Below the pieces are notes generated by a model, which worked only from the letters and a program-made list of their open reading frames with translations, was not told where the DNA came from and ran no database searches. The translations under genes and the position numbers were made by a program. A DNA stretch of 64,000 nt from Candidatus Iainarchaeum sp. GTDB taxonomy: Archaea; Iainarchaeota; Iainarchaeia; Iainarchaeales; JAXPJC01. The stretch spans positions 56,393 through 120,392 of the forward strand of contig JACPJC010000003.1 in assembly GCA_016187745.1 (NCBI GenBank), in the 5' to 3' direction. Below are positions 2,357 through 24,144 of this stretch, in pieces; the stretch's first letter is position 1, and the number at the start of each line of letters is the position of its first letter.

Positions 2357-3085
2357 ATGAATCCTAAATTACATAAATTGTTCAAGAAGAAAATGCCAAA
2401 GCCAAATGCATTTGCAAGAAAATACGCGATAACCCTTTCAGACCTTGAGCAAACGAAGGTAACGACACCTTTGGCTGCTGGCATTATAACCGGTGCTATT
2501 GCTAAAGAGGTTATTAGTCAATATGGAATTCCCCCTGTTGTTGGTATGCCTGTTGTTCTTTACAACATATATTCGGCAGGATCTCTTGCAAGCCTTGCAG
2601 TGAACAAAGCACTCAGATATAGAATTGCAAACTGCATAGGCAGACCAAGGTTTGCACGTAAGCTGATCTCTGAGCTTAAAAAGCAAGGAATGGAAAGAAA
2701 TGCACTAGACCCAAAACGTCTAAATGTATTAGGATGGCTAGAGAACATATCTTATATTAAGGGTGCATCGCATAGGGAAATCAAACAACTAAGAAATGAA
2801 TTTATAAAAGGCAATTTTGGTTCTGTAAGGTCTGCACTTAAAGAAATTTCATCATTTCAATATTTCAGAGAAAAAAATGGAAATCTTGCAGGGCTTATAC
2901 TCAAGAGAATTGAGGAAAAAAATGGAAAAGGTTTAGATGCCATCAAAATAACAAATTCTATTCTTAATGAATTCTTTGTTAGTAAAAAGTATGGTCACCA
3001 AATTAACATAAGAAATAAGTTATATAGTATAAGAATCCACAACCTAGAAGGAGAATGGCATGTGGAACTAATTGAGTCGAAATAA
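2357..3085 (+). CDS. hypothetical basic protein (ORFan)
   Basis: 242-aa AT-rich ORF with K/P-rich N-terminus; no recognisable domain. Confidence 0.65.
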   Translation: MNPKLHKLFKKKMPKPNAFARKYAITLSDLEQTKVTTPLAAGIITGAIAKEVISQYGIPPVVGMPVVLYNIYSAGSLASLAVNKALRYRIANCIGRPRFARKLISELKKQGMERNALDPKRLNVLGWLENISYIKGASHREIKQLRNEFIKGNFGSVRSALKEISSFQYFREKNGNLAGLILKRIEEKNGKGLDAIKITNSILNEFFVSKKYGHQINIRNKLYSIRIHNLEGEWHVELIESK

Positions 3086-3095
3086 ATATTGTTAC

Positions 3096-4571: not shown

Positions 4572-4623
4572 GAAAATAATATGTTCTGCACCTGAATTAA
4601 AAGCTATTTATTTGAGGCTTGTA

Positions 4624-5037
4624 CTATTTCTTCATTCCGGGAATCCAGAGGCCGGGCCTGCCCTTTATGAGGCATTCCGCAATGTCAGCATAGAAATGAA
4701 GCAGAATCCCGAGGGCAAAGGCGGCATTCCAGAGGTAAATGCCGAGCGCTGTAATCAATGCAACGAAATAAATGTTGTGGAAATAGGACTTGTTTGTTGT
4801 GTTTCTGTTGTCGTAATAGTATTTGTATGCCTCTATTATTTTCCACTGCCTGATGAGCCTGCGCGTATGGGCGTGCATGCTTGTTTTCTGGAAAAGAATG
4901 CAGGGCACATGGTCAAGCACATCAATGAAAATTGTAAGGAAAAGCGCCGCAACAAGGACAAGCTTTGGCATCGGGATGAATGAGGCAATTACCATATATG
5001 CCAGCGCGGTAACAACAAGATGGTTAAGGGAGTTCAT
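4624..5037 (-). CDS. membrane protein, possibly YdjM-like metal-dependent hydrolase
   Basis: TM helices with N-terminal H, DxxDH, FH and HxxxD motifs. Confidence 0.55.
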   Translation of the reverse strand: MNSLNHLVVTALAYMVIASFIPMPKLVLVAALFLTIFIDVLDHVPCILFQKTSMHAHTRRLIRQWKIIEAYKYYYDNRNTTNKSYFHNIYFVALITALGIYLWNAAFALGILLHFYADIAECLIKGRPGLWIPGMKK

Positions 5038-5978
5038 TTTTGTTCCCTGAAATATTCAATGGTTCTTTTCAGACCTTCTTCCAGCTCCACTTTAGGATGC
5101 CAGTTGAAAAGCTTTTTTGCGAGCGCTATGTCGGGCTTGCGCCTTTCGGGATCGTCCTTGGGAAGGGGCTTGAAAATTATCTCGGATTTTGAATTTGCAA
5201 GCTCTTTTATTTTTTGCGCGAGCTCCAGGATTGTGAATTCGTTCGGATTGCCTATATTCACGGGGAGATTGTAGTTTGCCTGCATAAGCCTCCAGATGCC
5301 GTCAATCTCATCGGAAACATAGCAGAAGGAGCGGGTTTGCTGCCCGGAACCGTAAATTGTAATGGGCTTGTTGTGCAGGGCCTGGTTTATGAAGTTTGTT
5401 ACAACTCTCCCGTCATCGGCGCGCATTTTCGGGCCGTAGGTATTGAAGATGCGCACAATCCTCGTATCCAGGGAGTATTTGCGGTAATAGGCCATTACGA
5501 GCGCTTCGGAAAATCTTTTGCTCTCGTCATAGCAGGACCTTGGGCCTATTGAATTCACATTGCCCCAGTAGCTCTCGTCCTGCGGGATTTTCAGTGCGCT
5601 CCCATAGACCTCGGAAGTGCTTGCCTCAAAGAATCTCGCCTTATTTTTGAGCGCCAGGTCAAGCATGTTCTTTGTCCCAAGGGAATTTACTAGCAGAATC
5701 TCCTCCGAAAGCCTGTCAAAATCAACAGGGGAAGCGGGCGAAGCAAGATTGTAAATTTCATCAATTTTTGAATTTAATTTCAGCGGGGCAGTAATGTCGT
5801 GCTTTATGAATGTGAAGTTCCTGTTTTTGAGCAGGTGCTGAACATTCTGCTTTCTCCCTGTGATTAAATTGTCAACGCATATTACTTTGTTGCCTTTCGC
5901 AATCAGCAAATCGCACAAATTGCTGCCCAAAAAGCCGGCGCCGCCCGTTACTAAGATTGTTTTCTGCTCCCTAGCCAT
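5034..5978 (-). CDS. UDP-glucuronate decarboxylase (UDP-xylose synthase)-like SDR
   Basis: [44 protein letters not shown]. Confidence 0.9.
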
Positions 5979-6705
5979 GGAATTCCCTTCTTGCCTGCTC
6001 CAGGGCCTCGGGCCAGCCTATGTCAAAGTATTTCTCCTCGTAAACAAACCCATAGAGCTCCTTTCTTTCAGTAAGCCAGATCATGAAATATCCCATCTTG
6101 TCAGGATTGCCGCCGGAATTAAGATATTCGCTGATTAGTTTTAGTTTTTCCCTCGGAAAGAAATATATGCCCGGGGAGACATAGGTTGTTTTCGGCTCTT
6201 TTGGCTTCTCTTCAAAGAGAATTACCCTTTTTGAGGCATCTATTGACGCATTGCCCTGCTCCTGCGCGACTTTCAGGGATTTTGCATCATGCAAGGCATT
6301 TACAATAACCCTTTTTTCCTTGAAGAACTCATATATCCTCCTCAATGAAAAGTTGAAGAGATTGTCCCCGTTAATGCTGATTAAATCATCGTCAATGCTT
6401 CCTTTCCGCAGGGCAAGTGCAATGTCCCCGATCTGCCCTAATCTGTTCTCATTCGAGGTTGTGTCGTCATTCAGGAGCTTTATCGGGATTCTGGAATTAA
6501 AATTCTTCAGCCAGGACTCAAAGTTCGGATAGAACTTTGCATTCGACACAATGTAGATTTCATCCACTGAATCCAACTCAACAATTTTGTCGATTATGTG
6601 CTCTATCATCGGCTTCCCCTGTATATCGAGCAGTGCTTTCGGCATGTTCTCGGTCAGGGGATAAAGGCGTGTCGCGTATCCCGCTACCGGAATTATTGCT
6701 TTCAT
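5971..6705 (-). CDS. sugar-phosphate nucleotidyltransferase
   Basis: [36 protein letters not shown]; start placed at ATG 6705 behind GAGGAGG. Confidence 0.9.
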
Positions 6706-6724
6706 TTTCTTTTCCTCCTCAGTA

Positions 6725-6787
6725 AAACATTGAGCACACCAAAACATTTGGCACACGAGGTTTGCCAGCCAAGCGTGCTCAATGTTT
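6725..6787. repeat. intergenic stem-loop with 13-bp perfect inverted repeat
   Basis: AAACATTGAGCAC (6725-6737) and GTGCTCAATGTTT (6775-6787), with inner TGGCA/TGCCA pairing. Confidence 0.7.
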
Positions 6788-8079
6788 CAGCGCCCCATGC
6801 AGATGTAATTGAAGCCGAGCGCCTTCATTTTTTCCTTTTCAAACAAATTGCGCCCGTCAATTATCAATGGTGCTTTCATTGCGCTTTTTATTTTTCCCAG
6901 GTCCATTTCCCTCACTTCCTTCCACTCAGTAATTATAAGCAATGCTTCCGCCCCCTTTGCGGCGCCATAAGCATCGGCGCAGTATTCGATTTTATTCCCG
7001 AAGAGTTTCTTGGCATTCTCCTCTGCCTTGGGGTCAAATGCCTTTATCCTTGCACCCTCCGCAAGCAGTGCATTGATCACATCAACGCTTGGGGCAAATC
7101 TCATGTCATCAGTGTCAGGCTTGAACGCAAGCCCTAAAACTCCAATTGTTTTGCCCTTCAGGTTCCACAAGGCGCTTTCAATCTTTTTTATGAAATTTCT
7201 CCTCTGCACTTCATTTATTTTCTGCACTTCCTTCAGCAATGCGAAATCATAGCCCTTTTTTTCTGCAATCCTTATGAAGGCTTCGGCATCCTTCGGGAAG
7301 CAAAACCCCCCGTAGCCAAGGCCCGCGGCAAGGAAGCGCTTTCCTATCCTTTCATCATAGCCCATCCCTTCCGCCACTTTTTTAACATCCGCCCCAGTAA
7401 GCTCGCAGATATTTGCAATTGCATTAATGAAGGAGATTTTTGTTGAGAGGAATGCGTTGCTCGCGTGCTTTATTATTTCCGCGCTCTTAATGTCAGTAAA
7501 TAGAATTGGCGCATTCAGCGGGGCATATAATTTTTTCATAATTTCCTGCGCATGCCCGCTCTCTGTCCCTATTACAATCCTATTGGGTTTCATGAAATCA
7601 TTCACTGCCGTTCCCTCGGACAGGAATTCGGGGTTGCTGACAACCTCGAATTTTATATTGTGCGGGTTATGGCGCTGCAGGACTTCCGCAATCTTTTCCC
7701 CGGTTTCAACAGGGACGGTGCTCTTCTCAACAACAATTTTTGGGGTTGTGGAAATTTCAGAAATGCGTTTGCATGCATTCTCCACGTGGCTCAGATCAGC
7801 ATCGCCGTTCGCCTTTGGGGGGGTTCCAACGCAAATGAAAATTATTCCGCTCTTTTTAACGGCATAATCGAAATCTGTTGTGAATTCAAGGCGCTTTGCC
7901 TTGGTGTTTTTCTTCACAAGGTCTTCAAGCTGCGGCTCGTAAATCGGCATTATGCCCGCATTCAGCTTTTTTATTTTTTCCTCATCAATGTCAACGCAGG
8001 CAACGCTGTTCCCCAGCTCCGCGAAACACGCGCCTGTAACCAGCCCCACATATCCGCTGCCAATGATTGCAATGTCCAT
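6787..8079 (-). CDS. ugd: UDP-glucose 6-dehydrogenase
   Basis: GSGYVG, ICVGTP, KSTVPV, NPEFL, GYGGFCFPKD, AFKPDTDDMR. Confidence 0.92.
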   Translation of the reverse strand: MDIAIIGSGYVGLVTGACFAELGNSVACVDIDEEKIKKLNAGIMPIYEPQLEDLVKKNTKAKRLEFTTDFDYAVKKSGIIFICVGTPPKANGDADLSHVENACKRISEISTTPKIVVEKSTVPVETGEKIAEVLQRHNPHNIKFEVVSNPEFLSEGTAVNDFMKPNRIVIGTESGHAQEIMKKLYAPLNAPILFTDIKSAEIIKHASNAFLSTKISFINAIANICELTGADVKKVAEGMGYDERIGKRFLAAGLGYGGFCFPKDAEAFIRIAEKKGYDFALLKEVQKINEVQRRNFIKKIESALWNLKGKTIGVLGLAFKPDTDDMRFAPSVDVINALLAEGARIKAFDPKAEENAKKLFGNKIEYCADAYGAAKGAEALLIITEWKEVREMDLGKIKSAMKAPLIIDGRNLFEKEKMKALGFNYICMGR

Positions 8080-8192
8080 AAAAACCGCAAAAGAATAATG
8101 GATTAACATATATTAAAATGAATGTTATTTGAGGTTTGTACTATCAGAAAGCCTTTTAAACTTCGGAATGCAGAATATATGTGTGATGGGAA

Positions 8193-8294
8193 ATGGCAGG
8201 GCCTAAAATACCAAAAATAAAGAGGAAGGTTACGCAGGGAGAGCTGCTTAGGCACGGGATTAGCGGCTTAAGGAAATATTTCAGGCGCCTCTGA
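8193..8294 (+). CDS. putative 33-aa basic micro-protein
   Basis: MAGPKIPKIKRKVTQGELLRHGISGLRKYFRRL*, below the ORF-track cutoff; fills an intergenic gap behind a TTTTAAA box. Confidence 0.3.
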   Translation: MAGPKIPKIKRKVTQGELLRHGISGLRKYFRRL

Positions 8295-9141
8295 GGAATT
8301 TTTCCAGCATTTCTTTTTCTTCCGGTATCTGCGCTTCGCTCACATCCAGACCGTGCTCAAGCACCAGCGGGATTTTCTTAATTTGCTTTATTTTCAGCAG
8401 CCTGCGCAGGTCAAAATCCTCCGGAAGCGGCGCATGCTGGTCTGTTTTATAGGTTGCGCCCTTTGCATTGCTGAAATGAATGTGCATCTCAATTATTTTT
8501 TTGTGGAATTCGGGCAGCAGAATGTCAAGCTGGCTTTCAAAGAGCGAATGCCCAAGATCGAACAGCATGCCCAAATCAGGATAGCGCGCAAAAAGCATTT
8601 CAAAATCCTCTAGGGAATAGAATAATGGGCGGAGTTTTGATTCCCAAACAGTATTTTCCATGGCAAAATCCAGCCCGAGGGCATCTGATTTTTTCAGCGC
8701 ATAATCAAGGATCCCGGATGCATTATCGAGGCATTTTTCCTTCGGCCATTCCTCCATTGCGCCTGTTTCATTAAATCCGCTTTTAAGAGTCTTGCCGTAT
8801 GAGGCCTTTCCAAGATAGCCAGGATGCACTGCAACAGCGCGCGCTTCAACAATGCGCCCCGCCTCAAGCAGCCCGTCAATTATTTTCCTGTTTTTGGGAG
8901 TCAGGCCTTCTGCGATATTGAACCATAATCTTTCTTTCATCGGAGGGAACAGCCCGTGCACCGTGAATTGCAAATCAGGGAAATCCTTCTTTATTTTTTT
9001 GATTGTTTCAAAGGCATTCTTCTCATATGCGTGCGCTGCGCCAAGTTCTGCGCATTCAAAGCCGAGTTCCGCAATCTTCCGCACGCTTTCATAAATTCCG
9101 GAATTGCGCAAAGCAAAATAAGTGCTGCTCAAGCCAAGCAT
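8281..9141 (-). CDS. sugar phosphate isomerase/epimerase / AP-endonuclease-2 family TIM barrel
   Basis: VHG, VHPG, MEN, FDLGH, HIH, DQH and LE metal-ligand pattern. Confidence 0.8.
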   Translation of the reverse strand: MLGLSSTYFALRNSGIYESVRKIAELGFECAELGAAHAYEKNAFETIKKIKKDFPDLQFTVHGLFPPMKERLWFNIAEGLTPKNRKIIDGLLEAGRIVEARAVAVHPGYLGKASYGKTLKSGFNETGAMEEWPKEKCLDNASGILDYALKKSDALGLDFAMENTVWESKLRPLFYSLEDFEMLFARYPDLGMLFDLGHSLFESQLDILLPEFHKKIIEMHIHFSNAKGATYKTDQHAPLPEDFDLRRLLKIKQIKKIPLVLEHGLDVSEAQIPEEKEMLEKFLRGA

Positions 9142-11518: not shown

Positions 11519-11707
11519 ATGGTCTGCTTCGGGGAATACGCAAGCTACCAGTTCAACTGCAAATTCTGCGATTTCCTGCAGGGCTGCAGGGAATTCACAA
11601 CAGCAAAAGGCAGGGCGCGGGGAAAGAATTCCGCTTCTGCAATTAACGAAAAAAAGCAAAGCAATAAAAAGCAATATCCATCAGTAAATAATCCAGGGGT
11701 TGGGTGA
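11519..11707 (+). CDS. small Cys-motif protein (first gene of putative toxin operon)
   Basis: CFG...CKFC...C zinc-binding-like pattern; stop overlaps the next start. Confidence 0.4.
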   Translation: MVCFGEYASYQFNCKFCDFLQGCREFTTAKGRARGKNSASAINEKKQSNKKQYPSVNNPGVG

Positions 11708-12176
11708 GGGTTTGGCGGGAGTTAAGTTAATCATAGTGATTGCGGCAGCGGTCCTGATTTTAATAGCGGTTTTTGGCAAGCCCCTTACCGGATTCAGCGT
11801 GCTTTCTCTCCTAGATGTTCAGGCGCAGTCAAACAAAGCGATGCTGGATGATGTGCTTAAGGAAAATCCGGAACTTGGCAGCAGCCTGACGCAGGCAGAG
11901 AAAACAAAGCTTTATGATGTAATTTCTGACAAAAAGCTCACAAAGGAACAGATTGAGGATCTTGTAAGAAGTATGCATAGATCGCCAGAAGAATTAGCAG
12001 AGACACAAAAAATAATAGAGGAAGCATTGCGTACAGGCCCTACTGCCGTTGGAGGCTATGAGGAAAGCTTTGTGATTGGTGGAAAGACATACACTGAAGA
12101 CGAACTCAAGAATATGACTGCTGAGCAAATTGAAGCGCTGACGGGGCAAACGCAGGGCGGAGGCACGGATAAATGA
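11700..12176 (+). CDS. membrane-anchored acidic helical protein
   Basis: N-terminal TM segment with LTGFSV; ATGA overlap with the next gene. Confidence 0.65.
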   Translation: MGEGLAGVKLIIVIAAAVLILIAVFGKPLTGFSVLSLLDVQAQSNKAMLDDVLKENPELGSSLTQAEKTKLYDVISDKKLTKEQIEDLVRSMHRSPEELAETQKIIEEALRTGPTAVGGYEESFVIGGKTYTEDELKNMTAEQIEALTGQTQGGGTDK

Positions 12177-13600
12177 ATGCCAAGCTCCTGCTGGCGTTTG
12201 CCGTACTCTCTTTATTCCTATTAAACAATGCCTCTGCAATCTGGCCATGGGATGAATGCAACAGCCCGAGCGGTGGAACAATTTACCCCGGAGGAAGCGC
12301 AAGCGGATGGATTGCCGGCTGGGTTGATGGTGATGATTGGGTAAGTGTTAATATCAGCAGTTCCGGCGAGTATAACTTCTGGCTTACCGGACCAAGCAAT
12401 GCAGATTTTGATTTGCAAGTTTATTCAAATTGCAGCGGCAGTTGGGTTTGTGGCTCAGCAGGCGGGAGCTCTTCTGAAAGCTGCACAAAATCTATCTCTT
12501 CTGGCACTTACCATATGAGGGTCCTTGCATATGGCTATTGGGATTCAGGCAATTGGACTATGGGCGCAACAAAAAAGGCAACAACCTGCTACACCCATAA
12601 TTATTCCGCGTGCTACAGCAACGACCGCTATTGGTATAATTCCTGCGGCACCAGGGAAGAGGTAAGGTATGATTGCGGAGATGATTCATATGGAAGCTGG
12701 AATAATTACTATTGCTCAAGCAATGATGTTTATAGGAGCAGGAGCTTTACAGACAGGGGCTGCTCATCAGATAGCTGCTTTGCAAATTCAAGCACGCAAT
12801 ATGAGCTATACCAGGATTGTGGCGATTCCAGCTATGGGTCATGGAGCAGCAACTATTGTTCAAGCAATAATGTAACGCAATCAAGGACTGTTTACAACAA
12901 AGGATGCTCAAGCGGCTCTTGCACATCAAGCAATACAACTGAAACCCGCGTAGTGGATTACTGCTCATCAAATGAAACATGCGAGAGCGGGCAATGCAAG
13001 CCGAAATGCACAAGCAATGCCTATACTTCGTGCTATAACGGGGATATTTATTGGTATGATTCCTGCAACAACAGGCAGGAGATAAAGACGGATTGCGGAG
13101 ACACTACATACGGATCATGGGGAAACAGCTATTGTTCCAGCAATAATGTAATGCAGACTCGCAATGTTTACGGGCCCTATTGCGAAAGCAGCCAGTGCAA
13201 AAGCCAGACAACAACAGAAAGCCGTATTGCGGAAACATGCGATGGGCAGTTTAATTTCTGCCTTGGAAACTCGTGCATTTTATGCGATTCACATACATCC
13301 TACCAATGCACGGACAATGATGTTTATTGGTTCAACTCCTGCGGCACTAAAGAGGACAAGAAGCAGGAATGCGGCTCAAGCTATTGTGATGCCTGGAGCG
13401 GAAATTCCTGCAAGGACGGGAGTGTTGTAAGGAGCAGGACTTGCTACGACAAGGGCTGCGGAAGCAATGCGTGCTACGCAAATCCGGACACGCAATATGA
13501 AAGTGTGGAAACGTGCCAGTATGGGTGCAGCGGCGGCGCATGCATCCAGCTCTCAGACCTGTCCATAGCGCCAGAGGACATCATATTTGAAAAGACGTGA
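12173..13600 (+). CDS. secreted Cys-rich repeat protein with PPC-like (pre-peptidase C-terminal) domain
   Basis: Signal peptide; DDWVSV..LTGPSNADFDLQVY..SESC..GTYHMRV; three YW(Y/F)(N/D)SC units plus Y(G/D)xWxxxxCxxxxVxxxR units. Confidence 0.8.
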   Translation: MNAKLLLAFAVLSLFLLNNASAIWPWDECNSPSGGTIYPGGSASGWIAGWVDGDDWVSVNISSSGEYNFWLTGPSNADFDLQVYSNCSGSWVCGSAGGSSSESCTKSISSGTYHMRVLAYGYWDSGNWTMGATKKATTCYTHNYSACYSNDRYWYNSCGTREEVRYDCGDDSYGSWNNYYCSSNDVYRSRSFTDRGCSSDSCFANSSTQYELYQDCGDSSYGSWSSNYCSSNNVTQSRTVYNKGCSSGSCTSSNTTETRVVDYCSSNETCESGQCKPKCTSNAYTSCYNGDIYWYDSCNNRQEIKTDCGDTTYGSWGNSYCSSNNVMQTRNVYGPYCESSQCKSQTTTESRIAETCDGQFNFCLGNSCILCDSHTSYQCTDNDVYWFNSCGTKEDKKQECGSSYCDAWSGNSCKDGSVVRSRTCYDKGCGSNACYANPDTQYESVETCQYGCSGGACIQLSDLSIAPEDIIFEKT

Positions 13601-16600
13601 TGAAATGAATGAAAAAGCAAGGGTGCATATTGCAAATGCTTTGGTTTTGCTAGTTGTGGTTGGCCTCATATTCGGGGCGCTTGCCGCAAGGGGCGGAAGT
13701 GGAAATGACAACGGGAATGCCCATGACAATATGGCGGATGCGGAACTTATTTTTACTGATGAAGATTTGAGCGCAAAAGAGCTTAAGGGGCGGGCGCTCA
13801 CATTCATTGAGCCAATGATTGCAACAGCAGCAGGCGATGACCTGAGCAAACTGCTTGAAATAAAGGCAAATATATCAGAAAGCCTTAATGCGGATTATTG
13901 GCTCTCCGATGAGTCTGTTACTAACGAAGAGGTCTTTAATTCTGAGAAATCCGCAGCAAATGACATCCGCACGCTCTACAACAGGGAAAGCAGCTTGCTT
14001 GACAATGCTTCCTTATTGCTTGCAATAAGCAGGTTAATCCAGGCCGATGATGAAATTTCCAAATTGCAGATGGAACAAACAGAGAATCTGCTCCTGCAGA
14101 TAAATGATGAGGCAACAATTGCGGCAATAAGCTCATACCTCAATGATGCAAGAAGCAGCTATGAGCAGGCATGGCACCAGATAGAGCAGCCAAGCAACTA
14201 TCCGAATTCAATTGAGCACTTCAAGAATTCATGGAATAGCTCATACAATGGCCTGCTGAAATTAGATGAACTAACAGTGCCGATAGTAACTATAGATTTC
14301 CCTGCAACAAATACTTACACCACTGAGGCAGACCAGGCAATTTCCGGCACAGTATGGGATGCAAGGCTGCACACAATCCCAAATGTGAAAGTAAATGTGA
14401 ATGATGCGGCATATGAATTTTCCCTGGATAATGGAAACTACAACGGCGCAATTGCCCTGAGCGAAGGGAACAACCTCATAACCGCATATGCAACTGATGC
14501 ATTCAACAATGCAGGGAGTGCAGGCATTGAAATGGTATTGGATACAATTGCGCCTGAAATAACTATTGAAGGTGTAGAAGACGGCGTATTTTACAATGCG
14601 GATGTAATTCCGATAGTTTCAATTGCCGATCTGCACCTGGCAGAAACAGTCATAACATTAAATGGCAATCCATTTGCTTCGGGAACAAGCATTGCAGAAG
14701 AAGGAGAATATACATTAACTGCCTATGGAAAAGATTTGGCAGGAAATGAATCAAGCAGGACAATAAGTTTTGTAATAGACAAGACTCCGCCAGCAGTGGT
14801 GATAAATGCCCCTGCAGATCTTGTTTACCTAAGGCAGGTTGTGCAGATTAATGGAACAGCAACTGACAAATATTTGGACAGTATTTCACTAAAGATTAAT
14901 GGTAATGAGGTTTCAAGTATAGCTAACTTTGAATGGAATACAATAGAATATGCGGATGGGGCTTATAATATTGAATTAAGCGCAAGAGACAAAGCCGGTA
15001 ATGCTTCATCCACAACAATTTCAGTAATTATTGATAACACTCTTCCGGAAATTACAATCAGCGGTATTGAAGAGGGGGCATTCTATAATTATGATGTTGT
15101 GCCGGTGGTTGAAGTAATTGAAGCTAATCCTGATATAACTACAGCAATGCTTGATAATGCTGAATTTGAGCTTGGCTCAAGCATTTCGGAAGAGGGAATG
15201 CATGAGTTTTCTGCAACAGCAACAGACAAGGCAGGAAATAGTGCAAGCAGGTCTGTAAGCTTTGGGATTGACAAAACTGCCCCAATAACAACTGATAATG
15301 CAATAACGGGATGGGTAAATACAGATGTTGTTGTAATTCTCACATCAGTAGACAATCTAAGCGGAGTGACAAAAACTTATTATTCAATCAATAATGGAGC
15401 AGAGCAGGAAGGCACGCAAATAACACTTACAGAAACAGGGGAATATATTATTTCATATTATTCAACAGATATTGCAGGAAACGTTGAGGATGCAAAGCAA
15501 AGTGCGAAAGTGCAGATAGACAAAATTGCCCCTGAAATTTCAGTTATTGCACCTGAGGAGAGGGATTATTCCTATACGGCTATTTTGCCCCTCAATTTCT
15601 CAGCAACTGATGCGGATTCAGGATTAAAAGAACTAAATGCAGAGCTTGATGGAATTGCTGTTAATTCTGGAGAGAATATAAACCTCTATAGTTATGCGCT
15701 CGGTCAGCACACACTTGTAATTAGTGCAATTGATAATGCAGGCAATTCTGCAACAAAGAGTGTTGTATTCAATCTAATTGATGATGTAAAGCCAGAATCA
15801 AACGCTGAACTTGCAGGAACGCCTGGAAATAATAATTGGTATGTGAGCGATGCTACAATTATACTTACTGCAATTGATGCAAAAAGTGGAGTTAAAAAAA
15901 TACAATACAGCACTGATGGAAGCACTTATGCAGATTATGCTGCTCCGCTAATAATTTCCACAGAAGGCCTAACAACAATTTATTACAGGGCAGAGGACAA
16001 TTCAGGCAATATTGAAGATACAAAAACAATTAGTTTTAAAATTGATAAAACTCCACCAGAACTAAACATTACTGAACTCAATGAAAATCCAACGCTTGAA
16101 GATGCTAATTATTCAATCTTAGTTGAAACAGAGAATGGTGCAGATTTGGGTGTTAGTATAATCCAAACTAATATAGATACATCAACGGGAAGCAATCTTG
16201 GTGCTACTCAATCTTCAGAGAGTATTGCTCATAATGGTTCCGCAATCTATAGAATGGATGTTATTGAAGGAATTAATGAAATAATCTTTACTGCAATGGA
16301 TGAAGCTGGAAATACAACAATAAAACAGTTTAGAAGGCTTGTTGATAGGGATAAGATTTCTGATAGTTATGAAATAGAGATGCTCAAAACAGATCCTCTA
16401 AAAGCAGATTCTGATAGTGATGGCATAAATGATGATATTGAGGACTTTGATGCAGATGGATTAACAAACCTTGCTGAATTTTTATTAGGCAGCAACCCAT
16501 TTGATGCTGATAGTGATGATGATACGCTTACTGATTTCTATGAGGTTGTAATGACAAATACAAGCCCAACAGATTCTGATACAAAGGATGCAGGAATTTC

Positions 16601-19556
16601 TGATGGCTTGCAGGACTTTGATGAAGAAGGTTTAACAAATGCTTCTGAACAACAATATGGTACACATCCCTTTAGAGAAGATACAGACAAAGATGGCATT
16701 AGTGATAGCAATGAGATTAATACATACAGAACAGACCCGCTAAATCCAGATACTAGCAATGATGGCATAACCGATGGAGATGCAGTTAGATATGGGCTGA
16801 ATCCCTCTGAGAATAATTCAAACACCCAACTTACATTTGAATTTGCTAATGAAGCAGCCGATGCTGAAATTGAAATAAAGGCAAGAGGTAAGATAATTGA
16901 TGATGTAAACATTGAAGTTAATCAAAACCCCTTCCCATTGCTTAAAAATCTTAGTGGAATATCATCCGAATTTATAGCAATTTCAGTTGATGAAAACTTT
17001 GATTCAGCAACAATAAAAGTACATTACAATCCTTCAGAGATTCCTGATCCAAGCAAATTAAGGCTTTTCAGATTTGATCCTGAGCAAAGAATTCCTGTTG
17101 AAGCTGGTGTACAAGGAATTGACATTGTAAACAACCTTGTGTGGGCAGAAACAAATAGCTTTAGCCTATGGTTCTTGGCTGATCCTAATGATTGGTATGC
17201 AAATTCTGCAATTTCTTGGAATAGGCCTGAACTGGTGTTTTCATCAGAAGAGATTATGACTGTCAAGGCACGCATTAGAAATAATACTTCTGTTCCTACC
17301 TCAAATGTAAGGGTTGATTTCTATGCTGGCAATCCAGATTCTGGAGGCATATTAATAGGAACAACCTATGTTGATGTTCCGGGAAACAACTATGCATTTG
17401 CATCAATTGAATGGCTTCCAGAGAATATCAAGGATGTTTATGTAGTTGTTGATCCTGCAGGCTTGATTGCAGAGACAGACAAAACCAACAACAAAGCCTC
17501 AAGAGTTTTTGAAACATATATAGATTCTGATGGCGATGGATTAAGCGACAGCGAAGAAACAAATGGCATGAGATTGTTGTTTCCTTACACACCAATCTAT
17601 ACAGATCCAAATAACCCAGATAGCGATGCTGATGGCTTAAGTGATAGCGAAGAGATGGGTGCACAGATAGAAATTAATGGGAAATTATACTACAATCCGG
17701 TAAGTTTGCCGGATAAGGCAGATTCTGACGCTGATGGCCTGGATGATTATTCAGAATCAGAAGGCTGGTATGTTTCTGTAATCTCTAATCTCTCTACACT
17801 AAAGGAGGTTCTGCAAAAGCAGGAGAATGATGAGGATTACACCAGCTTCATAACAAACTATCATGTAACCTCCAACCCGATGCTTTATGATACAGATAAC
17901 GATTATGTGAATGATGAAAGAGAGATGGCATTTGGCTCTGATCCTAGAAACAAAGATACTGATGGAGATTGGTTGCGAGATAATAGAGATGATGATCCAA
18001 CAGTAATTGAAACAGAAGTTCCAAAGATTGAGTTGCTGGGGATAACAATAATAGATTATAAAGTTGGGCCAGGCATACCTCCATTGCCACCAAGTATTAC
18101 TATTTGGGCAGAAGTTGCCTACTTTACTGAGGATAATGTAAAAATAAAGGTTGTATCTCTTGAAAATAATGGCAATCCACAAACAAGCCATTATTCTGAG
18201 GGCTTGTATTTGGATGGCTTTAGCTCAGAGCTTGTTTCCGGAGCATTGTTTGGAATAGATGTTAGGGTTCGTGCTGAAGACCTTGTTGGAAATGAGAGGA
18301 TTGTACAGATAATCTATGCTGAAGGCGTAGTGGCGGGGGTATACAAATTTTTTGACGAACAAGTAAAAGCATTTATTACCTCCCCAAGCGCCTACAATTA
18401 TGGTTTTGGGCACGGCTTGATAGATGGGGTAGCAATGGAGGTTGGTGATACAGTAGACTTTGTTGGGAGTGTTGTTACTGAAGGAGCACAACCGTGGATA
18501 GCTGCCGGCAAGGGCATTGAAACCGTTGCAAATGAAGGTTTGGGAATAATATTTGAAGCATATGGCCAGCGAATGAAGCCCTTGAGAGAGGCCGACAACC
18601 CCTATCCAAAAAACACCCCTGATTATAGCTCATTCAATACTGGTTGGAATACTGGCTTTGGCACCGGCTATATAAGTACAGCAGTGGTTGAGGGAATTGC
18701 AATCTCAAAAGGTGCAAGTTGGGCAGCAAGCGTTGCAAAGAACCTTGCAAACTCAGGCAAGCTTGCAGGCATTGCCTCAAAGCTCTCAAAGGCAGGCAAA
18801 ATAATTAAATCGGCAGCCAGCATGCCACTAAAGAACAAGCTTGTGCTTGGAGCAAGTGCTGTCGGCAGCACCTACTTGCTGAAAGAAGCCTTCCCAGATA
18901 TTGATGCGTTAGATAATCTATACTATCTTGAACTAGGAGTTGCACCAACATTCCTTACAATGGGGGAAGGCAAAAATCTTCGCAAGCTGAATGCTCTCAC
19001 GCCAGACGAACAAGAAGGAGTACTAAAATTTATTGCAAGAAACGATCAATCGGCAATAAAGACTAGAGTGAACTTCCTTAACAAGCTTGATGATGCCTCT
19101 CTCAAAAATTGGGCAAATACTGAAGCAAGTATACAGAAGCACCTCTATGGTGGAGTTGTAAAGCTCAGAAAACTAGGATATGATGATGAGTTAATAGCAA
19201 ACGTCTATAAAAATAATGGGGATTTGACACAAACTTTAAGGATAGCTAAAGACGGGAGTGGAGTTACCGGGTGGCTAGAGATTGGAGATCGTGCAGCAAA
19301 AAACGGGTGGGATCACATTAAATTTGACCATCAGCTAGATTTTGTTAAAAACATTGGTGCAGAATTTGTAAATGGTGATAAATTGAAAGATTTAGTAATT
19401 GAAAGTGTAAGAAATGGTTTAACCCCGGATTATCCAACACAATATTTCTTTGAAGTTAAGCCAGGTAAATGGATGAGAACGGTGAGAGGTTCAAATGGTT
19501 ATATACATACTTCACATCCAGTAGAAATAGACCAAGTACCACTATCAATAAGGTGA
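13587..19556 (+). CDS. giant multidomain surface protein / polymorphic toxin with C-terminal nuclease-like domain (alternative start 13605)
   Basis: N-terminal TM; tandem Ig-like repeats (DxAGN...IDxTxP); DxDxDG Ca-binding repeats; CARDB domain (~17223-17510); Gly/Ala-rich region; C-terminal WLExG...GWDHI...H..DF...GSNGYIHTSHP. Confidence 0.8.
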   Translation: MKRRDEMNEKARVHIANALVLLVVVGLIFGALAARGGSGNDNGNAHDNMADAELIFTDEDLSAKELKGRALTFIEPMIATAAGDDLSKLLEIKANISESLNADYWLSDESVTNEEVFNSEKSAANDIRTLYNRESSLLDNASLLLAISRLIQADDEISKLQMEQTENLLLQINDEATIAAISSYLNDARSSYEQAWHQIEQPSNYPNSIEHFKNSWNSSYNGLLKLDELTVPIVTIDFPATNTYTTEADQAISGTVWDARLHTIPNVKVNVNDAAYEFSLDNGNYNGAIALSEGNNLITAYATDAFNNAGSAGIEMVLDTIAPEITIEGVEDGVFYNADVIPIVSIADLHLAETVITLNGNPFASGTSIAEEGEYTLTAYGKDLAGNESSRTISFVIDKTPPAVVINAPADLVYLRQVVQINGTATDKYLDSISLKINGNEVSSIANFEWNTIEYADGAYNIELSARDKAGNASSTTISVIIDNTLPEITISGIEEGAFYNYDVVPVVEVIEANPDITTAMLDNAEFELGSSISEEGMHEFSATATDKAGNSASRSVSFGIDKTAPITTDNAITGWVNTDVVVILTSVDNLSGVTKTYYSINNGAEQEGTQITLTETGEYIISYYSTDIAGNVEDAKQSAKVQIDKIAPEISVIAPEERDYSYTAILPLNFSATDADSGLKELNAELDGIAVNSGENINLYSYALGQHTLVISAIDNAGNSATKSVVFNLIDDVKPESNAELAGTPGNNNWYVSDATIILTAIDAKSGVKKIQYSTDGSTYADYAAPLIISTEGLTTIYYRAEDNSGNIEDTKTISFKIDKTPPELNITELNENPTLEDANYSILVETENGADLGVSIIQTNIDTSTGSNLGATQSSESIAHNGSAIYRMDVIEGINEIIFTAMDEAGNTTIKQFRRLVDRDKISDSYEIEMLKTDPLKADSDSDGINDDIEDFDADGLTNLAEFLLGSNPFDADSDDDTLTDFYEVVMTNTSPTDSDTKDAGISDGLQDFDEEGLTNASEQQYGTHPFREDTDKDGISDSNEINTYRTDPLNPDTSNDGITDGDAVRYGLNPSENNSNTQLTFEFANEAADAEIEIKARGKIIDDVNIEVNQNPFPLLKNLSGISSEFIAISVDENFDSATIKVHYNPSEIPDPSKLRLFRFDPEQRIPVEAGVQGIDIVNNLVWAETNSFSLWFLADPNDWYANSAISWNRPELVFSSEEIMTVKARIRNNTSVPTSNVRVDFYAGNPDSGGILIGTTYVDVPGNNYAFASIEWLPENIKDVYVVVDPAGLIAETDKTNNKASRVFETYIDSDGDGLSDSEETNGMRLLFPYTPIYTDPNNPDSDADGLSDSEEMGAQIEINGKLYYNPVSLPDKADSDADGLDDYSESEGWYVSVISNLSTLKEVLQKQENDEDYTSFITNYHVTSNPMLYDTDNDYVNDEREMAFGSDPRNKDTDGDWLRDNRDDDPTVIETEVPKIELLGITIIDYKVGPGIPPLPPSITIWAEVAYFTEDNVKIKVVSLENNGNPQTSHYSEGLYLDGFSSELVSGALFGIDVRVRAEDLVGNERIVQIIYAEGVVAGVYKFFDEQVKAFITSPSAYNYGFGHGLIDGVAMEVGDTVDFVGSVVTEGAQPWIAAGKGIETVANEGLGIIFEAYGQRMKPLREADNPYPKNTPDYSSFNTGWNTGFGTGYISTAVVEGIAISKGASWAASVAKNLANSGKLAGIASKLSKAGKIIKSAASMPLKNKLVLGASAVGSTYLLKEAFPDIDALDNLYYLELGVAPTFLTMGEGKNLRKLNALTPDEQEGVLKFIARNDQSAIKTRVNFLNKLDDASLKNWANTEASIQKHLYGGVVKLRKLGYDDELIANVYKNNGDLTQTLRIAKDGSGVTGWLEIGDRAAKNGWDHIKFDHQLDFVKNIGAEFVNGDKLKDLVIESVRNGLTPDYPTQYFFEVKPGKWMRTVRGSNGYIHTSHPVEIDQVPLSIR

Positions 19557-19560
19557 ACAC

Positions 19561-20049
19561 ATGCCATCAATTTTAATCGAAACAAAAAAGATTATTGGAT
19601 TAAATGACATAATTAGATTCCCTAATGTATCTGCTAGTGCTGCGGATCCTAGGTTTATTGCCTATGCGGATATTTATATTAATATAAATGGAAAAGAATT
19701 AAAAACAAAAAATAAAGTTACAGGTGATTGGTTGTGGTGGTTTTATTCTGAATTATTGAAATCATACTGTGATGCAATAGCAAAAGGTATTGGTATTTGC
19801 AATTTTACTGATTCTGCAGATCGTCTGATTCTGGAAAGAAAAGGTGGGGAGTTATTTCTTACTTTCAAATATGCCTATAAAAATAAAACTAATATCAAAA
19901 AAGAAAAATTAGAACTCATTTTATTTAGAGACTATATAACTGAAAAGGCTAGTAATTTTTATAATGATTTAATAAAATTGAATAAGAATATCAAGAACAA
20001 GGAGTTCATGAAACTTGGAAGTCTAATCAGAAAGGTTAAGAAATTATAG
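19561..20049 (+). CDS. putative cognate immunity protein
   Basis: Starts 4 nt after the toxin stop, with the AGGTGA SD overlapping that stop; AT-rich; 162 aa. Confidence 0.65.
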   Translation: MPSILIETKKIIGLNDIIRFPNVSASAADPRFIAYADIYININGKELKTKNKVTGDWLWWFYSELLKSYCDAIAKGIGICNFTDSADRLILERKGGELFLTFKYAYKNKTNIKKEKLELILFRDYITEKASNFYNDLIKLNKNIKNKEFMKLGSLIRKVKKL

Positions 20050-20196
20050 AGAAGCCCATGGGGGGATTTAAGCAAAACACTGCATATAACAGATTCAGAA
20101 ATTCGTAGAGTTATAGCTAACAGTGGATTGAAATACATTGATGAGGTCCAGATTGAAACTACCATGGATATAAAAATATTTTCAGTACCAAAATAA
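20050..20196 (+). pseudogene. orphan toxin C-terminal remnant 1 (no 5' start codon)
   Basis: Frame reads RSPWGDLSKTLHITDSEIRR...FSVPK*; GDLSKTLHI resembles GDLTQTLRI at the start of the main toxin tip (19218). Confidence 0.45.
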
Positions 20197-20212
20197 AAAG
20201 TAAATAAATGAT

Positions 20213-20920
20213 ATGGTGTATACAATGCATGAATTTTTAAAAGAAGGTTTTATAGGTAGTGATAGTCTAACTTCCTGGTCATTTGAATTAGGTAGAAAAG
20301 AAACGAGTGTAGGCGTGGCTAGCATATTAGATAACATATTACGCAAAAGGTTAAAGTTTTGCTATCCTTATAATGTAGAGATAGACCAAGCAGACTTCTC
20401 AATATTTATGAAACCAAATGATCCACCTTTAGGGAAAGTATTGGGAAAAAACAAAGCGGTAATGGATGCAATTAAAGAATTTACTGAAAACAATCCGCAA
20501 TCATATGGTGCCAGTATTGCTATTGACTGGTCCGTTAATCTCTATTTGAAGACTAATGAAACATATAAAAAAAGACTTGTTAAACCAGGAGAGTTTCAAA
20601 TACATAAAGGGACTCGTTATCCAGTTATTTTAACTATAAGTGATTCAGAATGGGTCCATTTTTATAATAACGCACAAATTTGGTTTCCTTGTGTATATAA
20701 ACATAATAATAATCTTGGACATGCTAAAAGAAACATACCTCTTTTAAACAAAGCTTTTAAAATGCTTGATAGAGAACTTGAACCAAAAGATATAGACTTT
20801 GAACCAAACGAATTCAATGGTGCAAAAGTTTTCAAACATGGATTAAAAATACAAAAAGGGGATTGTTGGTGTAAACGGACATCATCGTGGGAAAAACCTT
20901 TAATTTGGAAGACATTATAA
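20213..20920 (+). CDS. putative orphan immunity protein
   Basis: 235-aa AT-rich ORF directly after remnant 1. Confidence 0.55.
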   Translation: MVYTMHEFLKEGFIGSDSLTSWSFELGRKETSVGVASILDNILRKRLKFCYPYNVEIDQADFSIFMKPNDPPLGKVLGKNKAVMDAIKEFTENNPQSYGASIAIDWSVNLYLKTNETYKKRLVKPGEFQIHKGTRYPVILTISDSEWVHFYNNAQIWFPCVYKHNNNLGHAKRNIPLLNKAFKMLDRELEPKDIDFEPNEFNGAKVFKHGLKIQKGDCWCKRTSSWEKPLIWKTL

Positions 20921-20922
20921 AC

Positions 20923-21060
20923 ATGACTGAAGAAGAAAGAGAAATTGAGATTGTAACCATTGGTCCTAAAGATGGAATTGGTTTTGATAAGACCTTAGAT
21001 TATACTGAAAAAGAACTGGATGAATTATATAACACAATAAGTAAATGGTTAAGTGGTTAA
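20923..21060 (+). pseudogene. orphan toxin C-terminal remnant 2
   Basis: MTEEEREIEIVTIGPKDGIGFDKTLDYTEKELDELYNTISKWLSG*, clearly homologous to the end of 21525..21947; its stop is 1 nt before the next ATG. Confidence 0.6.
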
Positions 21061-21061
21061 T

Positions 21062-21520
21062 ATGGGTCAAGGCTACTATTTATATAAGGGGGCTGGCAAT
21101 GAACCAAGAGAAGACCGTAACGAATTTACATTGTTGGGCAAAGGAGAACCACGTTTTGGTGTTTCTTATGGTACTGGTGGGCAAGTTATCATAACTCTAG
21201 AAGAAAATGGTTGGGGTGCAAGTGTATTGAGAAAGATATATAAAATATGGGATAAAGAAGAAATTCAGAAACATACATCTGAAGAGCTAATGGCACATCT
21301 AAAAGAATGTAGTGATATAATTTTATCAGAAGACGAAATAAAGGAAGTAAAAGAGTACTGCAATACAATTATACCACAATTAGAAAAAAGAATAGAAGAA
21401 ATGGAAAGCAAAGGAGACTTCAAAACAGGTTACTTTGATGAGGCAGTTTTCTTCTTGAAGGGATTAAAAAATTTGTGTGAAAAGGCATTAGAAAGAAACC
21501 TGAAAATTAGGATATCTTAA
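21062..21520 (+). CDS. putative orphan immunity protein
   Basis: Acidic helical protein ending LKNLCEKALERNLKIRIS; translationally coupled to remnant 2. Confidence 0.6.
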   Translation: MGQGYYLYKGAGNEPREDRNEFTLLGKGEPRFGVSYGTGGQVIITLEENGWGASVLRKIYKIWDKEEIQKHTSEELMAHLKECSDIILSEDEIKEVKEYCNTIIPQLEKRIEEMESKGDFKTGYFDEAVFFLKGLKNLCEKALERNLKIRIS

Positions 21521-21524
21521 AGAC

Positions 21525-21947
21525 TTGCGACTAAATAAAAAGGACTTATTGCTTATGCCTGCATTTGAAGTTAAATTGAAGGATGCAACAACGGGGGAAA
21601 TAAAAATTGCAAGAGTTTCAAATTTTGTTACAAAAAATAATGAGATTGTTGCAATATACAATACTAAGAGTAAGTGTAACAAATCCGAGGCAAAGGCAGC
21701 CAAAGAAGAATTGGAAAATTTTATATCACTTATTAAGGCTTGGCAAAATAGCGAAACTGGAAAAGATTATACACTTGGAGCAGAAGGATTCAAAATAAAG
21801 GTTTCTGAAATAAACACTGATAAGATCAAACTTATAACAATAGGTCCAAAAGGTGGGAAGAAAGTAGGATTTGATAGGGAATTGGAATATACTGAAATGG
21901 AATTGGATGAATTATATAAGACACTTAAGTATGGGATGAAATCATAA
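21525..21947 (+). CDS. orphan toxin C-terminal fragment 3 (possibly nuclease-like)
   Basis: TTG start with no clear SD; C-terminus ITIGPKGGKKVGFDRELEYTEMELDELYKTL is homologous to remnant 2. Confidence 0.5.
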   Translation: MRLNKKDLLLMPAFEVKLKDATTGEIKIARVSNFVTKNNEIVAIYNTKSKCNKSEAKAAKEELENFISLIKAWQNSETGKDYTLGAEGFKIKVSEINTDKIKLITIGPKGGKKVGFDRELEYTEMELDELYKTLKYGMKS

Positions 21948-22384: not shown

Positions 22385-22405
22385 CATTTGAATCTGTGGA
22401 AAAAC

Positions 22406-22960
22406 ATGCGCTATAAATTGCTGCTGGTCCTGCTGTTTGCGGTTGCGCTTTTCGCTGCAATCAGCGTCTTGCGCCCGATAGGGGAAGCCGGGCTGAAGAG
22501 CCAGACTGAAGTTCCGGAACAGCAGAAAGTTTCCGCTTACTTCTGCCCCGAGGACGACTGCAGCGGCAAATTGATTGATGCGATTGGTAGCGCTAAAACT
22601 TATGTGCACATTGCAATCTACTCCTTCACGCATAAGGGAATTGCAGATGCGCTTGTTTCAGCAAGGCTGCGCGGAGTGGAAGTGAAGGTCCTTTTTGACA
22701 GGCAGCAGGCGGGAAGCGAATTCAGCGTTGATGAAATTTTAAGCGAGGCGGGAATTGAGGTTAAGTATGATACGCTTTCGGGGTATATGCACGACAAATT
22801 CACGGTAATTGATGACAGGATTGCGACAACAGGCTCCTTTAATTACACAAGGAATGCTGATGCGAGAAATGCCGAAAACCTTGTAATAATGAATGCCGAG
22901 GATGTTGCAATGAAGTTTGAACTTGAATTCCAGAAGCTTTGGGAGAGCAGCGGAAGCTAA
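22406..22960 (+). CDS. secreted/membrane-anchored phospholipase D family nuclease (Nuc-like)
   Basis: N-terminal TM; single HKD motif MHDKFTVID, TGSFNYT, NAEN. Confidence 0.85.
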   Translation: MRYKLLLVLLFAVALFAAISVLRPIGEAGLKSQTEVPEQQKVSAYFCPEDDCSGKLIDAIGSAKTYVHIAIYSFTHKGIADALVSARLRGVEVKVLFDRQQAGSEFSVDEILSEAGIEVKYDTLSGYMHDKFTVIDDRIATTGSFNYTRNADARNAENLVIMNAEDVAMKFELEFQKLWESSGS

Positions 22961-24144
22961 AAAATCCTGACTTTTTTATATGCCCTGTCCGGCAGCCTGT
23001 TCACAATCCTTCTCGCATTCCTTATGTTCTTTACGGATTCCTCAAAATAGGGGTAGAACGCCCTTAATTTCAGGTCTTGCCTTTCCCTCGCAGGCCTGTA
23101 TTTGTACAGGTCAATTTCCAGCTTCCTGCTTCCGAGGATTTTTTCAGCCTTAATAAGCTCGCGCAGCGCACCATCCTTTGTCATCGTGCCCGCAAGCCCC
23201 CTTGCTATCGAATCAATTGAATAATTTTTCCTCCTGAAAAGCAGCCTCTCAAATGCGATTTTCTGCGCGGCATTGCGCAGCCCAAGCTCATTCATCAGCC
23301 CGAGGGAGAAAATGCGCGCATTTACGGCGCCTGCGGCCTGCGCAGCGGTTTTTCCCCTTGTGAATGGGATTCTCCGCATTTCCTTTCTCCTGCCCCCTGC
23401 ATAAATCGCATGTTTTCCAACATGCGCCCTTGTTTCCTTGCCTATCAGATGGACATTTTCCGGGGTAAACGGAGCGCCGACAACCCTTTTTGAGAGCGTG
23501 CGCTCGCCGAATATTGTTGCCCTGTTTCTCCCGGCCTCTTTTGAATGATAAAGCGCATTGTCCGCTGCTTCCGCCATCATATCATAAATTGTTTTTGGGC
23601 TGCCTTTCACAATTTCTGAAAATTTGCTTATTTTATAGCCGCGCCTGTCCTTTAACGGCTTATTTATTTCAGCAGCCTGCAGTCTCCTTACGGTTTCTGC
23701 GTCTGCAATTCCCGCGCTGAATGTGGGAAAGCTCACCTTGTAGAATTTCTTCCCGTTTGCAATGAAATTCCGCCTGAGCGCTTCATTGAATTCCGCAATT
23801 ACCCCCTCTGCCCGCTTTGCATCCATCGGAAGGAAAATCCTGAATTCCTCCCCCCCGAATCTTGAGGCCAGGGCGCCATGCTTTCTTGCAATCTCCGCCA
23901 TTGTTCTTGTGTATAATTCAATTACCCTGTCGCCCATGAAATGCCCCCTGATATCATTGAACTTTTTGAAATTGTCAATGTCAAGCATTACAAGGGAATG
24001 CGCGCCGCGCCTTCTCAGAAATGGCCTTGCCATCCTCACCAATTCGTTATCCCTGAGGACAAAAGGGAATTTCTCATCCATTATGCCTTTCGGGAGCTTT
24101 TTCCTTGGCCCCCTTGAAAGCTGCCTTATGCGCATAAGAAACAT
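22957..24144 (-). CDS. GGDEF-domain (diguanylate cyclase-like) protein
   Basis: MLDIDNFKKFNDIRGHFMGD, SRFGGEEF, TFSAGIA, ADNALYHSKEAGRNR. Confidence 0.88.
   Translation of the reverse strand: MFLMRIRQLSRGPRKKLPKGIMDEKFPFVLRDNELVRMARPFLRRRGAHSLVMLDIDNFKKFNDIRGHFMGDRVIELYTRTMAEIARKHGALASRFGGEEFRIFLPMDAKRAEGVIAEFNEALRRNFIANGKKFYKVSFPTFSAGIADAETVRRLQAAEINKPLKDRRGYKISKFSEIVKGSPKTIYDMMAEAADNALYHSKEAGRNRATIFGERTLSKRVVGAPFTPENVHLIGKETRAHVGKHAIYAGGRRKEMRRIPFTRGKTAAQAAGAVNARIFSLGLMNELGLRNAAQKIAFERLLFRRKNYSIDSIARGLAGTMTKDGALRELIKAEKILGSRKLEIDLYKYRPARERQDLKLRAFYPYFEESVKNIRNARRIVNRLPDRAYKKVRIF

Follow-up and report, generated by a model that had tools for sequence, protein, structure and literature searches.

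The analysed stretch of DNA (the window) comprises 64,000 nucleotides (nt) of a Candidatus Iainarchaeum genome, positions 56393-120392 of genome contig 2. The genome (0.96 Mb, 91% complete, labelled G000) belongs to a small-genome archaeon of the DPANN type, and the relatives compared with it all have small genomes and belong to one order. The window contains a three-gene cassette on the + strand, which encodes a small protein with a hydrophobic helix, a Cys-rich partner protein (P0001) and a giant protein (P0002), in this order. P0001 ends in a short tail resembling the first β-strand of a CARDB domain, and the only CARDB domain of P0002 lacks this very strand. With modest confidence, we favor the reading that the tail inserts into the CARDB domain of the giant as a donor strand and joins the two proteins outside the cell.

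P0001 has 475 amino acids (aa) and is encoded by the open reading frame (ORF) 12173..13600 (+), with its stop codon at 13598..13600. Residues 460-475 (LSDLSIAPEDIIFEKT; 13550..13597, +) form the proposed donor strand ('plug'), and the C-terminus as translated reads ...CQYGCSGGACIQLSDLSIAPEDIIFEKT, followed by the stop codon. The ORF of P0002 spans 13587..19556 (+) and has 1989 aa; judged from the sequence, its start is most likely the ATG at 13605, 4 nt past the partner stop, which gives a gene of 13605..19556. The proposed acceptor ('socket') is the CARDB core of the giant, residues 1219-1306 (17241..17504, +). A β domain and a Trp-rich linker (16854..17240, +) are located directly upstream of it.

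For the analysis of the tail, a hidden Markov model (HMM) of CARDB was built from 138 units starting with PDL, taken from CARDB-repeat proteins and Cys-rich homologues (consensus start LPDLAISSSDITFSPSSPAEGETVTITATVRN). The first-pass annotation of the window had observed that the Cys-rich protein ends in what looks like the opening strand of a CARDB domain. This impression is borne out, as all six tails found align to HMM positions 1-3 through 13-15, the tail of P0001 covering positions 3-15. By sequence comparison, the tail is a homologue of CARDB strand A/A'. The six proteins represent at least five lineages and end in [DN]L.[IV]...DI.[FI]E[KR] plus 0-1 residues. Thus, the terminal motif, whose retention among partner proteins had been proposed as a check, is kept in P0001 of the window (QLSDLSIAPEDIIFEKT), in its 81% identical copy P0004 (QLSDLAITPEDIIFEKT), in P0007 of genome G004 (ARPNLVISSSDITIEKT), in P0039 of genome G031 (PKPNLTVSESDIWIER) and in the metagenomic proteins P0013 (IKPNLKITESDIVIER) and P0015 (KYPDLAVTEADILFEKV). 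The distance between the last Cys module and the motif is equal in all six, and four residues are invariant (L463, D469, I470 and E473 in P0001 numbering), while the tail-bearing proteins other than P0004 have just 27-40% identity to P0001 outside the tail. Across the five lineages, pairwise identity is 0.50 in the tail versus 0.30 in non-Cys columns. Among 339 windows of 15 residues, the tail ranks 18th in conservation; the top ten all begin within residues 437-449, in the neighbouring Cys module.

The strict tail motif was found at the C-terminus only, in the six proteins and in two cluster mates of P0013, and inside none of the proteins collected, about 150 of which are CARDB-repeat proteins. 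When all six partners were used for a profile search, 48 proteins among 5458 candidates were retained, with no new tail-bearing lineage. Longer, fused forms were searched with the last 100 residues of P0001, which yielded 5 proteins among 15 candidates. Four of these were aligned with BLASTP (P0210 was left out); the alignments stop at query position 83-89 of 100, i.e., before the tail or just inside its start, and no CARDB is present in the four proteins. This hints, weakly, that a fused form of partner and CARDB does not exist.

The giant contains SEEIMTVKARIRNN...VDFYAGNPDSGGILIG...VYVVVDP...IAETDKTNNKAS, and Pfam CARDB (PF07705) matches its residues 1221-1305 (E-value 5.7e-6, 26.9-27 bits, cut-off 22.7). 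The match covers only positions 17/18-100 of the 101 profile positions. In the three orthologous giants P0040, P0041 and P0042 the CARDB scores are 25.2, 43.8 and 34.0 bits, and the match starts at profile position 16-18 in all four giants. The suspicion voiced in the first-pass annotation that the N-terminal part of this CARDB is too short is therefore correct at the profile level (match to 18-100 of 101). The combination of β domain and CARDB forms a two-domain module which was also found in 11 other large proteins. Each of the 19 giant-type modules aligned (from 17 distinct proteins, since two rows duplicate others) starts at position 14-19 of the HMM built here and ends at 106-108, with the giant of the window spanning 19-108; their CARDB is without the N-terminal PDL...DI.F strand, which occupies profile positions 1 to ~15. 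Taken together, the HMM spans of tails and modules cover one profile with an overlap of at most 2 positions.

The structure of the module segment (giant residues 1090-1330) was predicted with AlphaFold2 (AF2) from a 15-row alignment, with a mean predicted local distance difference test (pLDDT) value of 83.7. The model has six CARDB strands (B, C, C', E, F and G) and no strand A, so the giant CARDB is not predicted to fold completely alone; complete folding on its own was the outcome that the first-pass annotation had named as speaking against strand donation. The upstream β domain (giant residues 1090-1199) has its strands within segment positions 4-109. Between the domains, the Trp-rich linker (...DPNDWYANSAISWNRPELVF, segment 111-134) fills the sequence position of the canonical strand A; it forms no strand and has a pLDDT of 65-70, and its residues W122 and N123 (segment numbering) are invariant in four orthologues. 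With Foldseek, the AF2 module matched the solved CARDB structures 2kut (E-value 5.1e-6), 2kl6 (2.3e-4), 3idu (7.7e-4) and 2l0d (2.8e-3), all with a probability of 1.00, 96-102 aligned columns and a template modelling score (TMt) of 0.59-0.66. A rival candidate for the first strand, the PELVFSSEEI of the giant itself, had been named in the first-pass annotation and was rejected. It aligns to profile positions of the A-B loop following strand A, the orthologues read RDPIVY and GIIDFQNTY at this place with no PDL, and AF2 predicts no strand there.

Plug and socket are found in the same genomes. A DNA pattern for the tail matched 3 of the 215 genomes of the phylum, once each (a reversed control gave 1 match), the full two-domain module was detected in 3 of the 215 (CARDB cores alone in 13), and the N-terminal domain of the giant in 3 of the 196 genomes searched, which were restricted to the order. 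Tail, N-terminal domain and module were found each time in the same three genomes, G000, G004 and G031, one from each of three families. In these genomes and in the metagenomic locus L014 the partner and giant genes are adjacent; G004, G031 and L014 carry the same three genes in the same order. Directly visible in the sequences are the conserved tail, the truncated CARDB and the fact that the two genes strictly co-occur as neighbours. Being 1:1 and sporadic, plug and socket are distributed as expected of a mobile cassette. Scans for further cassettes gave 1 locus from 344 pattern matches in metagenomes and 2 loci from 116 pattern matches in genome contigs, which were the same contigs as those of G004 and G031. 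No cassette was found in viral contigs scanned with two alignments (A5 and A4).

The giant module segment was further modelled in complex with partner residues 399-475, in three runs and with three controls. The interface score ipSAE was 0.77, 0.76 and 0.82 in the three runs, and the best of the controls reached 0.00; the multimer prediction of tail and CARDB region suggested in the first-pass annotation is compatible with the pairing. The ipSAE mark applied, which 58 of 80 solved complexes and 2 of 110 mismatched pairs attained, is only roughly valid for this model, where own alignments were used. The runs share at least 92% of their contacts, and the pLDDT of the partner is at least 84. In the predicted interface, partner residues 449-450 and 458-475 face segment residues 133-145 (strand B), 195-200 (strand F) and 205-222 (region of strand G). 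The tail is placed antiparallel to strand B, and residue pairs 140:469, 137:472 and 143:463 reproduce the register that strands A and B have in an intact CARDB. Opposite the invariant Asp469 the model has Arg140, a position occupied by R in three orthologues and by N in the remaining one. Conservation, a predicted core without strand A and an ipSAE of 0.77 in the canonical register together lend computational support to the first-pass proposal of donor-strand complementation.

The following mechanism is proposed. The partner, which has no membrane anchor, would be secreted, and its last 15-18 residues would form a free β-strand derived from CARDB A/A'. The giant would likewise be exported and is probably anchored in the membrane by its N-terminus, its single CARDB having lost exactly strand A. 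After export, the tail would slot in antiparallel beside strand B according to the predicted geometry, and complete the β-sandwich in trans. In this way, the Cys-rich binding protein would be tethered about two thirds along the stalk of the giant, with one plug per socket. A plausible evolutionary route would combine a truncated terminal CARDB in the partner with a pre-existing CARDB without strand A in the giant.

Several points weigh against donor-strand insertion. Taken one by one, the HMM scores of the tails are weak (2.4-7.9 bits, E-values 0.0003-0.015 in one-sequence searches), and only four cassettes are known, two of which are closely related. The positive complex prediction may reflect the memory of the model for intact CARDB folds, as split pieces tend to reassemble; given this possibility, the result indicates compatibility of the two pieces with one CARDB, and the binding is predicted rather than demonstrated. 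The socket is located in the middle of a protein, ~1200 residues into the downstream giant, so the pair did not arise by simple gene fission. The domain 2KUT, a CARDB-like domain solved by nuclear magnetic resonance, is 35% identical to the giant CARDB in the Foldseek alignment, and from its chain residue 10 it aligns to ELVFSSEEI of the giant, with at most 9 residues preceding. As 2KUT starts at a nearly equivalent point, a core without strand A can apparently fold alone; 2KUT may be natural, or made by the construct, in starting there. Finally, the module without strand A is found in large proteins named Aenigmarchaeota, Woesearchaeota and Methanoperedens, which may or may not have tail-bearing partners.

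A functional tail could also have another acceptor or role, a reading we hold to be unlikely. It might bind elsewhere on the giant, to the small upstream protein or to a protein of the host cell, or serve as an export or processing tag. Conservation and co-occurrence link the tail to the cassette and not specifically to the CARDB, and a single pair of pieces was modelled. Two other candidate binding sites are the upstream small protein, which is conserved in all four loci, and a second strand-like motif of the giant, D.ELIF..E.L, just after the N-terminal helix. However, this motif matches CARDB positions 1-15 in none of the four giants, whereas the CARDB piece absent from the giant is precisely the one to which the tail shows homology, and the predicted pairing of the tail with the CARDB is far above the controls and in the canonical register. 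Concerning a sorting tag, we know of no archaeal C-terminal sorting signal of this form.

Alternatively, the tail might be a truncation relic, an ancestral terminal CARDB cut down to its first strand, with the giant CARDB being a self-sufficient six-stranded variant and the match between them coincidental. An analysis of the C-termini of 53 members of the Cys-rich family bears on this explanation: six have the tail, six a complete CARDB, seven a hydrophobic helix and 34 other ends. The complete CARDB (HMM 1-2 to 107-108) is the last domain and follows directly after the last Cys module; in two of these Cys-rich proteins, P0017 and P0018, the Pfam CARDB match begins at profile position 2 and 1. 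The tail is thus positioned where these homologues carry their terminal CARDB and is most simply understood as a remnant of such a domain, which makes truncation its likely origin. The self-sufficiency of the giant CARDB could be argued from 2KUT, which suggests that a core from the equivalent point folds alone, and from the wide occurrence of the module without strand A (17 distinct proteins), which may need no partner. Yet a useless, unstructured tail of 15 residues should decay, and this one is instead among the best-conserved non-Cys segments, with four residues invariant and the end point unchanged in proteins otherwise 27-40% identical. By closing with E[KR], the tail departs from the canonical 'sP' continuation; none of the internal CARDB units examined has this ending, which hints at an adaptation to the terminal position. 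Moreover, the three of 215 genomes that have the tail are the same three that have the socket, in a 1:1 ratio. A mere relic is improbable in our view.

As the distance of 4 nt between ORFs in different frames could suggest, a single gene might have been split into partner and giant by a frameshift or a sequencing error, as an artefact of assembly or gene calling. This is highly improbable and was rejected, because four independent assemblies agree in the position of the stop, all four giants have their own start codon and hydrophobic N-terminal helix, and the sequence after the tail is not the rest of the CARDB, which lies ~1200 residues downstream.

P0001 likely has a signal peptide of the Sec type, as judged from its sequence. 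A domain of the pre-peptidase C-terminal (PPC)/collagen-binding type (residues ~30-135) is followed by Cys-rich β-hairpin repeats (~139-457) and the C-terminal tail. The AF2 model of the whole protein (mean pLDDT 69.7) shows a head of the PPC/collagen-binding type and long hairpins of the disulfide type; in this monomer the tail is without structure (pLDDT 56 and 46). Foldseek matched the N-terminal domain to the pre-peptidase C-terminal/collagen-binding structures 5sv5 (TMt 0.76) and 1nqj (TMt 0.62-0.78). The Pfam search of P0001 gave no family; in the relative P0015, PPC was matched with an E-value of 8.4e-5 and 23.8 bits, under the Pfam cut-off of 25.9 bits. We infer a ligand-binding role for the partner. 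Among its homologues, precomputed Pfam annotations list a cohesin (PF00963) in two proteins, P0005 being one of them, and a dockerin (PF00404) in another two, P0008 and P0210. Accordingly, the Cys-rich family has repeatedly been combined with protein-docking modules.

The giant begins with a hydrophobic anchor or signal, followed by a conserved helical domain, Ig-like repeats and calcium repeats of the TSP3 type; then come the module of β domain and CARDB, further TSP3 repeats and, at the C-terminus, a domain that varies. Pfam families above the cut-off are Big_13, Glucodextran_B and CARDB, with TSP3_bac below it (E-value 0.017, 15.4 versus 25 bits), and NCBIfam matched an OmpL47-type barrel in 5 stretches. 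The helical N-terminal domain (13707..14291, +) has the invariant sequence NRESS..L..AISR..QAD and is also present in giants named Aenigmarchaeota and Methanoperedens; large proteins with the module without strand A often have it. This domain is preceded by the conserved strand-like motif D.ELIF..E.L. As a candidate for a self-donated strand it was rejected, with scores of -1.1 to -1.3 and no match to CARDB positions 1-15 in any of the four giants. A second giant is encoded in the same genome (contig 6, 31000-40000, locus L037; ORF 2773..9000, -, more than 2045 aa). By eye, it has at least 4 canonical CARDB repeats, LamG- and PKD-like regions and a C-terminal membrane segment. It is the only other CARDB protein detected in the window genome and has its own first strands of the PDL type, again by eye.

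The variable C-terminal domain of P0002 comprises the last ~145 aa (19119..19553, +) and was delimited by comparison with the close copy P0042. BLASTP similarity between the two ends at residue 1844 of 1989, and the first 195 aligned residues of their N-terminal domain are 91% identical. Over a stretch of 106 aa, this domain of P0002 shares 35% identity with the C-terminal end of the G031 giant. In the last 500 aa of the window giant, Pfam gave no family at an E-value of at most 1 and hence no toxin family. The C-terminus of the G004 orthologue matched Mrr_cat, a restriction endonuclease family, with an E-value of 0.0082 and 16.7 bits, under the cut-off of 21. By eye, the C-terminal domains of G004 and of L014 (15890..16387) are nuclease-like. 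A swapped C-terminal domain is the pattern of polymorphic effectors, a putative label drawn from sequence comparison. The giant had been called a toxin in the first-pass annotation; a variable C-terminal domain on a conserved body agrees with this name, a recognisable toxin family in Pfam does not accompany it. As labels for the system, 'exchangeable', 'adhesin' and 'toxin' would be interpretations.

Donor-strand complementation is best known from chaperone-usher pili (Fim, Pap), in which an Ig-like sandwich without its C-terminal G strand is completed by the N-terminal extension of another subunit. Each pilus subunit has a plug as well as a socket, the subunits form polymers, and a periplasmic chaperone and an usher are needed. 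The proposed pairing is alike in that an Ig-like sandwich short of one strand would be completed in trans by a terminal extension. It differs as the missing strand of the cassette is the N-terminal A and the donor is a C-terminal tail, and as the partner is a plug only, with the socket being an internal domain of the giant. From this arrangement, a 1:1 hetero-complex is expected and, the partner having no acceptor domain, a filament would not be. No chaperone or usher was identified, although no search was aimed at such families.

Strand donation between archaeal proteins has been described for the filaments known as Sulfolobus threads (PMC9715654), for Pyrodictium cannulae (bioRxiv 10.1101/2024.12.30.630787) and for the Tat-dependent bundling pili of haloarchaea (PMC12337348). 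In these, extracellular proteins are reportedly joined by strand donation with no known dedicated chaperone, as would be the case for the cassette; the filaments are homopolymers of small subunits, whereas the cassette would place a cargo on one domain of a giant. Solved CARDB domains are 3IDU/2KL6 (PF1109 of Pyrococcus), 2L0D (Methanosarcina) and 2KUT (Geobacter). The giant domain passes the Pfam cut-off and superposes on these structures; unlike canonical CARDB, it is without positions 1 to ~15, which are present at the C-terminus of its neighbour instead. In the literature search, CARDB was not found mentioned together with 'donor strand'.

The proposed tethering is also a functional analogue of the cohesin-dockerin system, since a secreted protein would be attached by a small terminal module to a scaffold of large size. 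Cohesin and dockerin, however, are each a complete domain and bind surface to surface, whereas the cassette would share one domain between two chains. Polymorphic toxins have a long conserved stalk, a C-terminal domain differing between close relatives, and small unrelated genes following the toxin gene; archaeal examples of polymorphic toxins or contact-dependent effector proteins have reportedly been published (PMC6393860). The giant has the conserved stalk, the swapped C-terminus and small genes of different composition on its 3' side, but its C-terminal domain matches no toxin family and the downstream ORFs match no immunity family. The features that would set the cassette apart are a heterotypic 1:1 pairing, a C-terminal plug for an N-terminal strand, an internal socket and a fold not known for this function.

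For DPANN archaea, whose way of life is attachment to other cells, the construction and aiming of the huge surface proteins are poorly understood. If donor-strand insertion is correct, a multi-protein surface appendage would be assembled simply, from two neighbouring genes and without covalent anchors. Donor-strand complementation would be extended from pilus polymers to the loading of cargo on a giant protein, and the CARDB fold would gain a role in joining proteins. The tag of 15 residues and the acceptor of 90 residues could serve as a natural split-domain tag. A broader possibility, which is rather doubtful, is that CARDB domains without strand A in giant surface proteins of archaea (DPANN, Methanoperedens) are general sockets on which C-terminal CARDB-strand tags load interchangeable binding heads, in this case directing a contact-dependent effector towards a host cell or a competing cell. 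Engineered split-domain tags would then have a natural counterpart that works without covalent bonds.

The first gene of the cassette (11700..12176, +) is a translated ORF for the small protein, whose hydrophobic helix is N-terminal. No Pfam or NCBIfam family was matched at the cut-off. Its C-terminal motif GG..E..F.IGGKTYTE.ELK.MT.EQ is kept, and an orthologue is found directly 5' of the partner gene in all four loci. This protein might assist in the assembly of partner and giant.

The GC content is 0.47 in the partner gene, 0.37-0.40 in the giant gene and 0.32 over 20-22 kb, while the flanks have 0.42-0.47. The region of low GC holds four small ORFs (162, 235, 155 and 140 aa; 19561..21947, +) on the 3' side of the giant gene, which matched no Pfam family at the cut-off and no immunity family. 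By their position, they are candidates for immunity, accessory or orphan-module genes. Directly after this block, a PLD-like protein with an N-terminal hydrophobic segment is encoded (22388..22960, +; PLDc_2, E-value 1.1e-29). It is followed by a GGDEF diguanylate-cyclase protein of 395 aa (22957..24144, -; Pfam E-value 7e-19, 68.6 bits) with the motif GGEEF; to our knowledge, cyclic di-GMP signalling is unusual among archaea.

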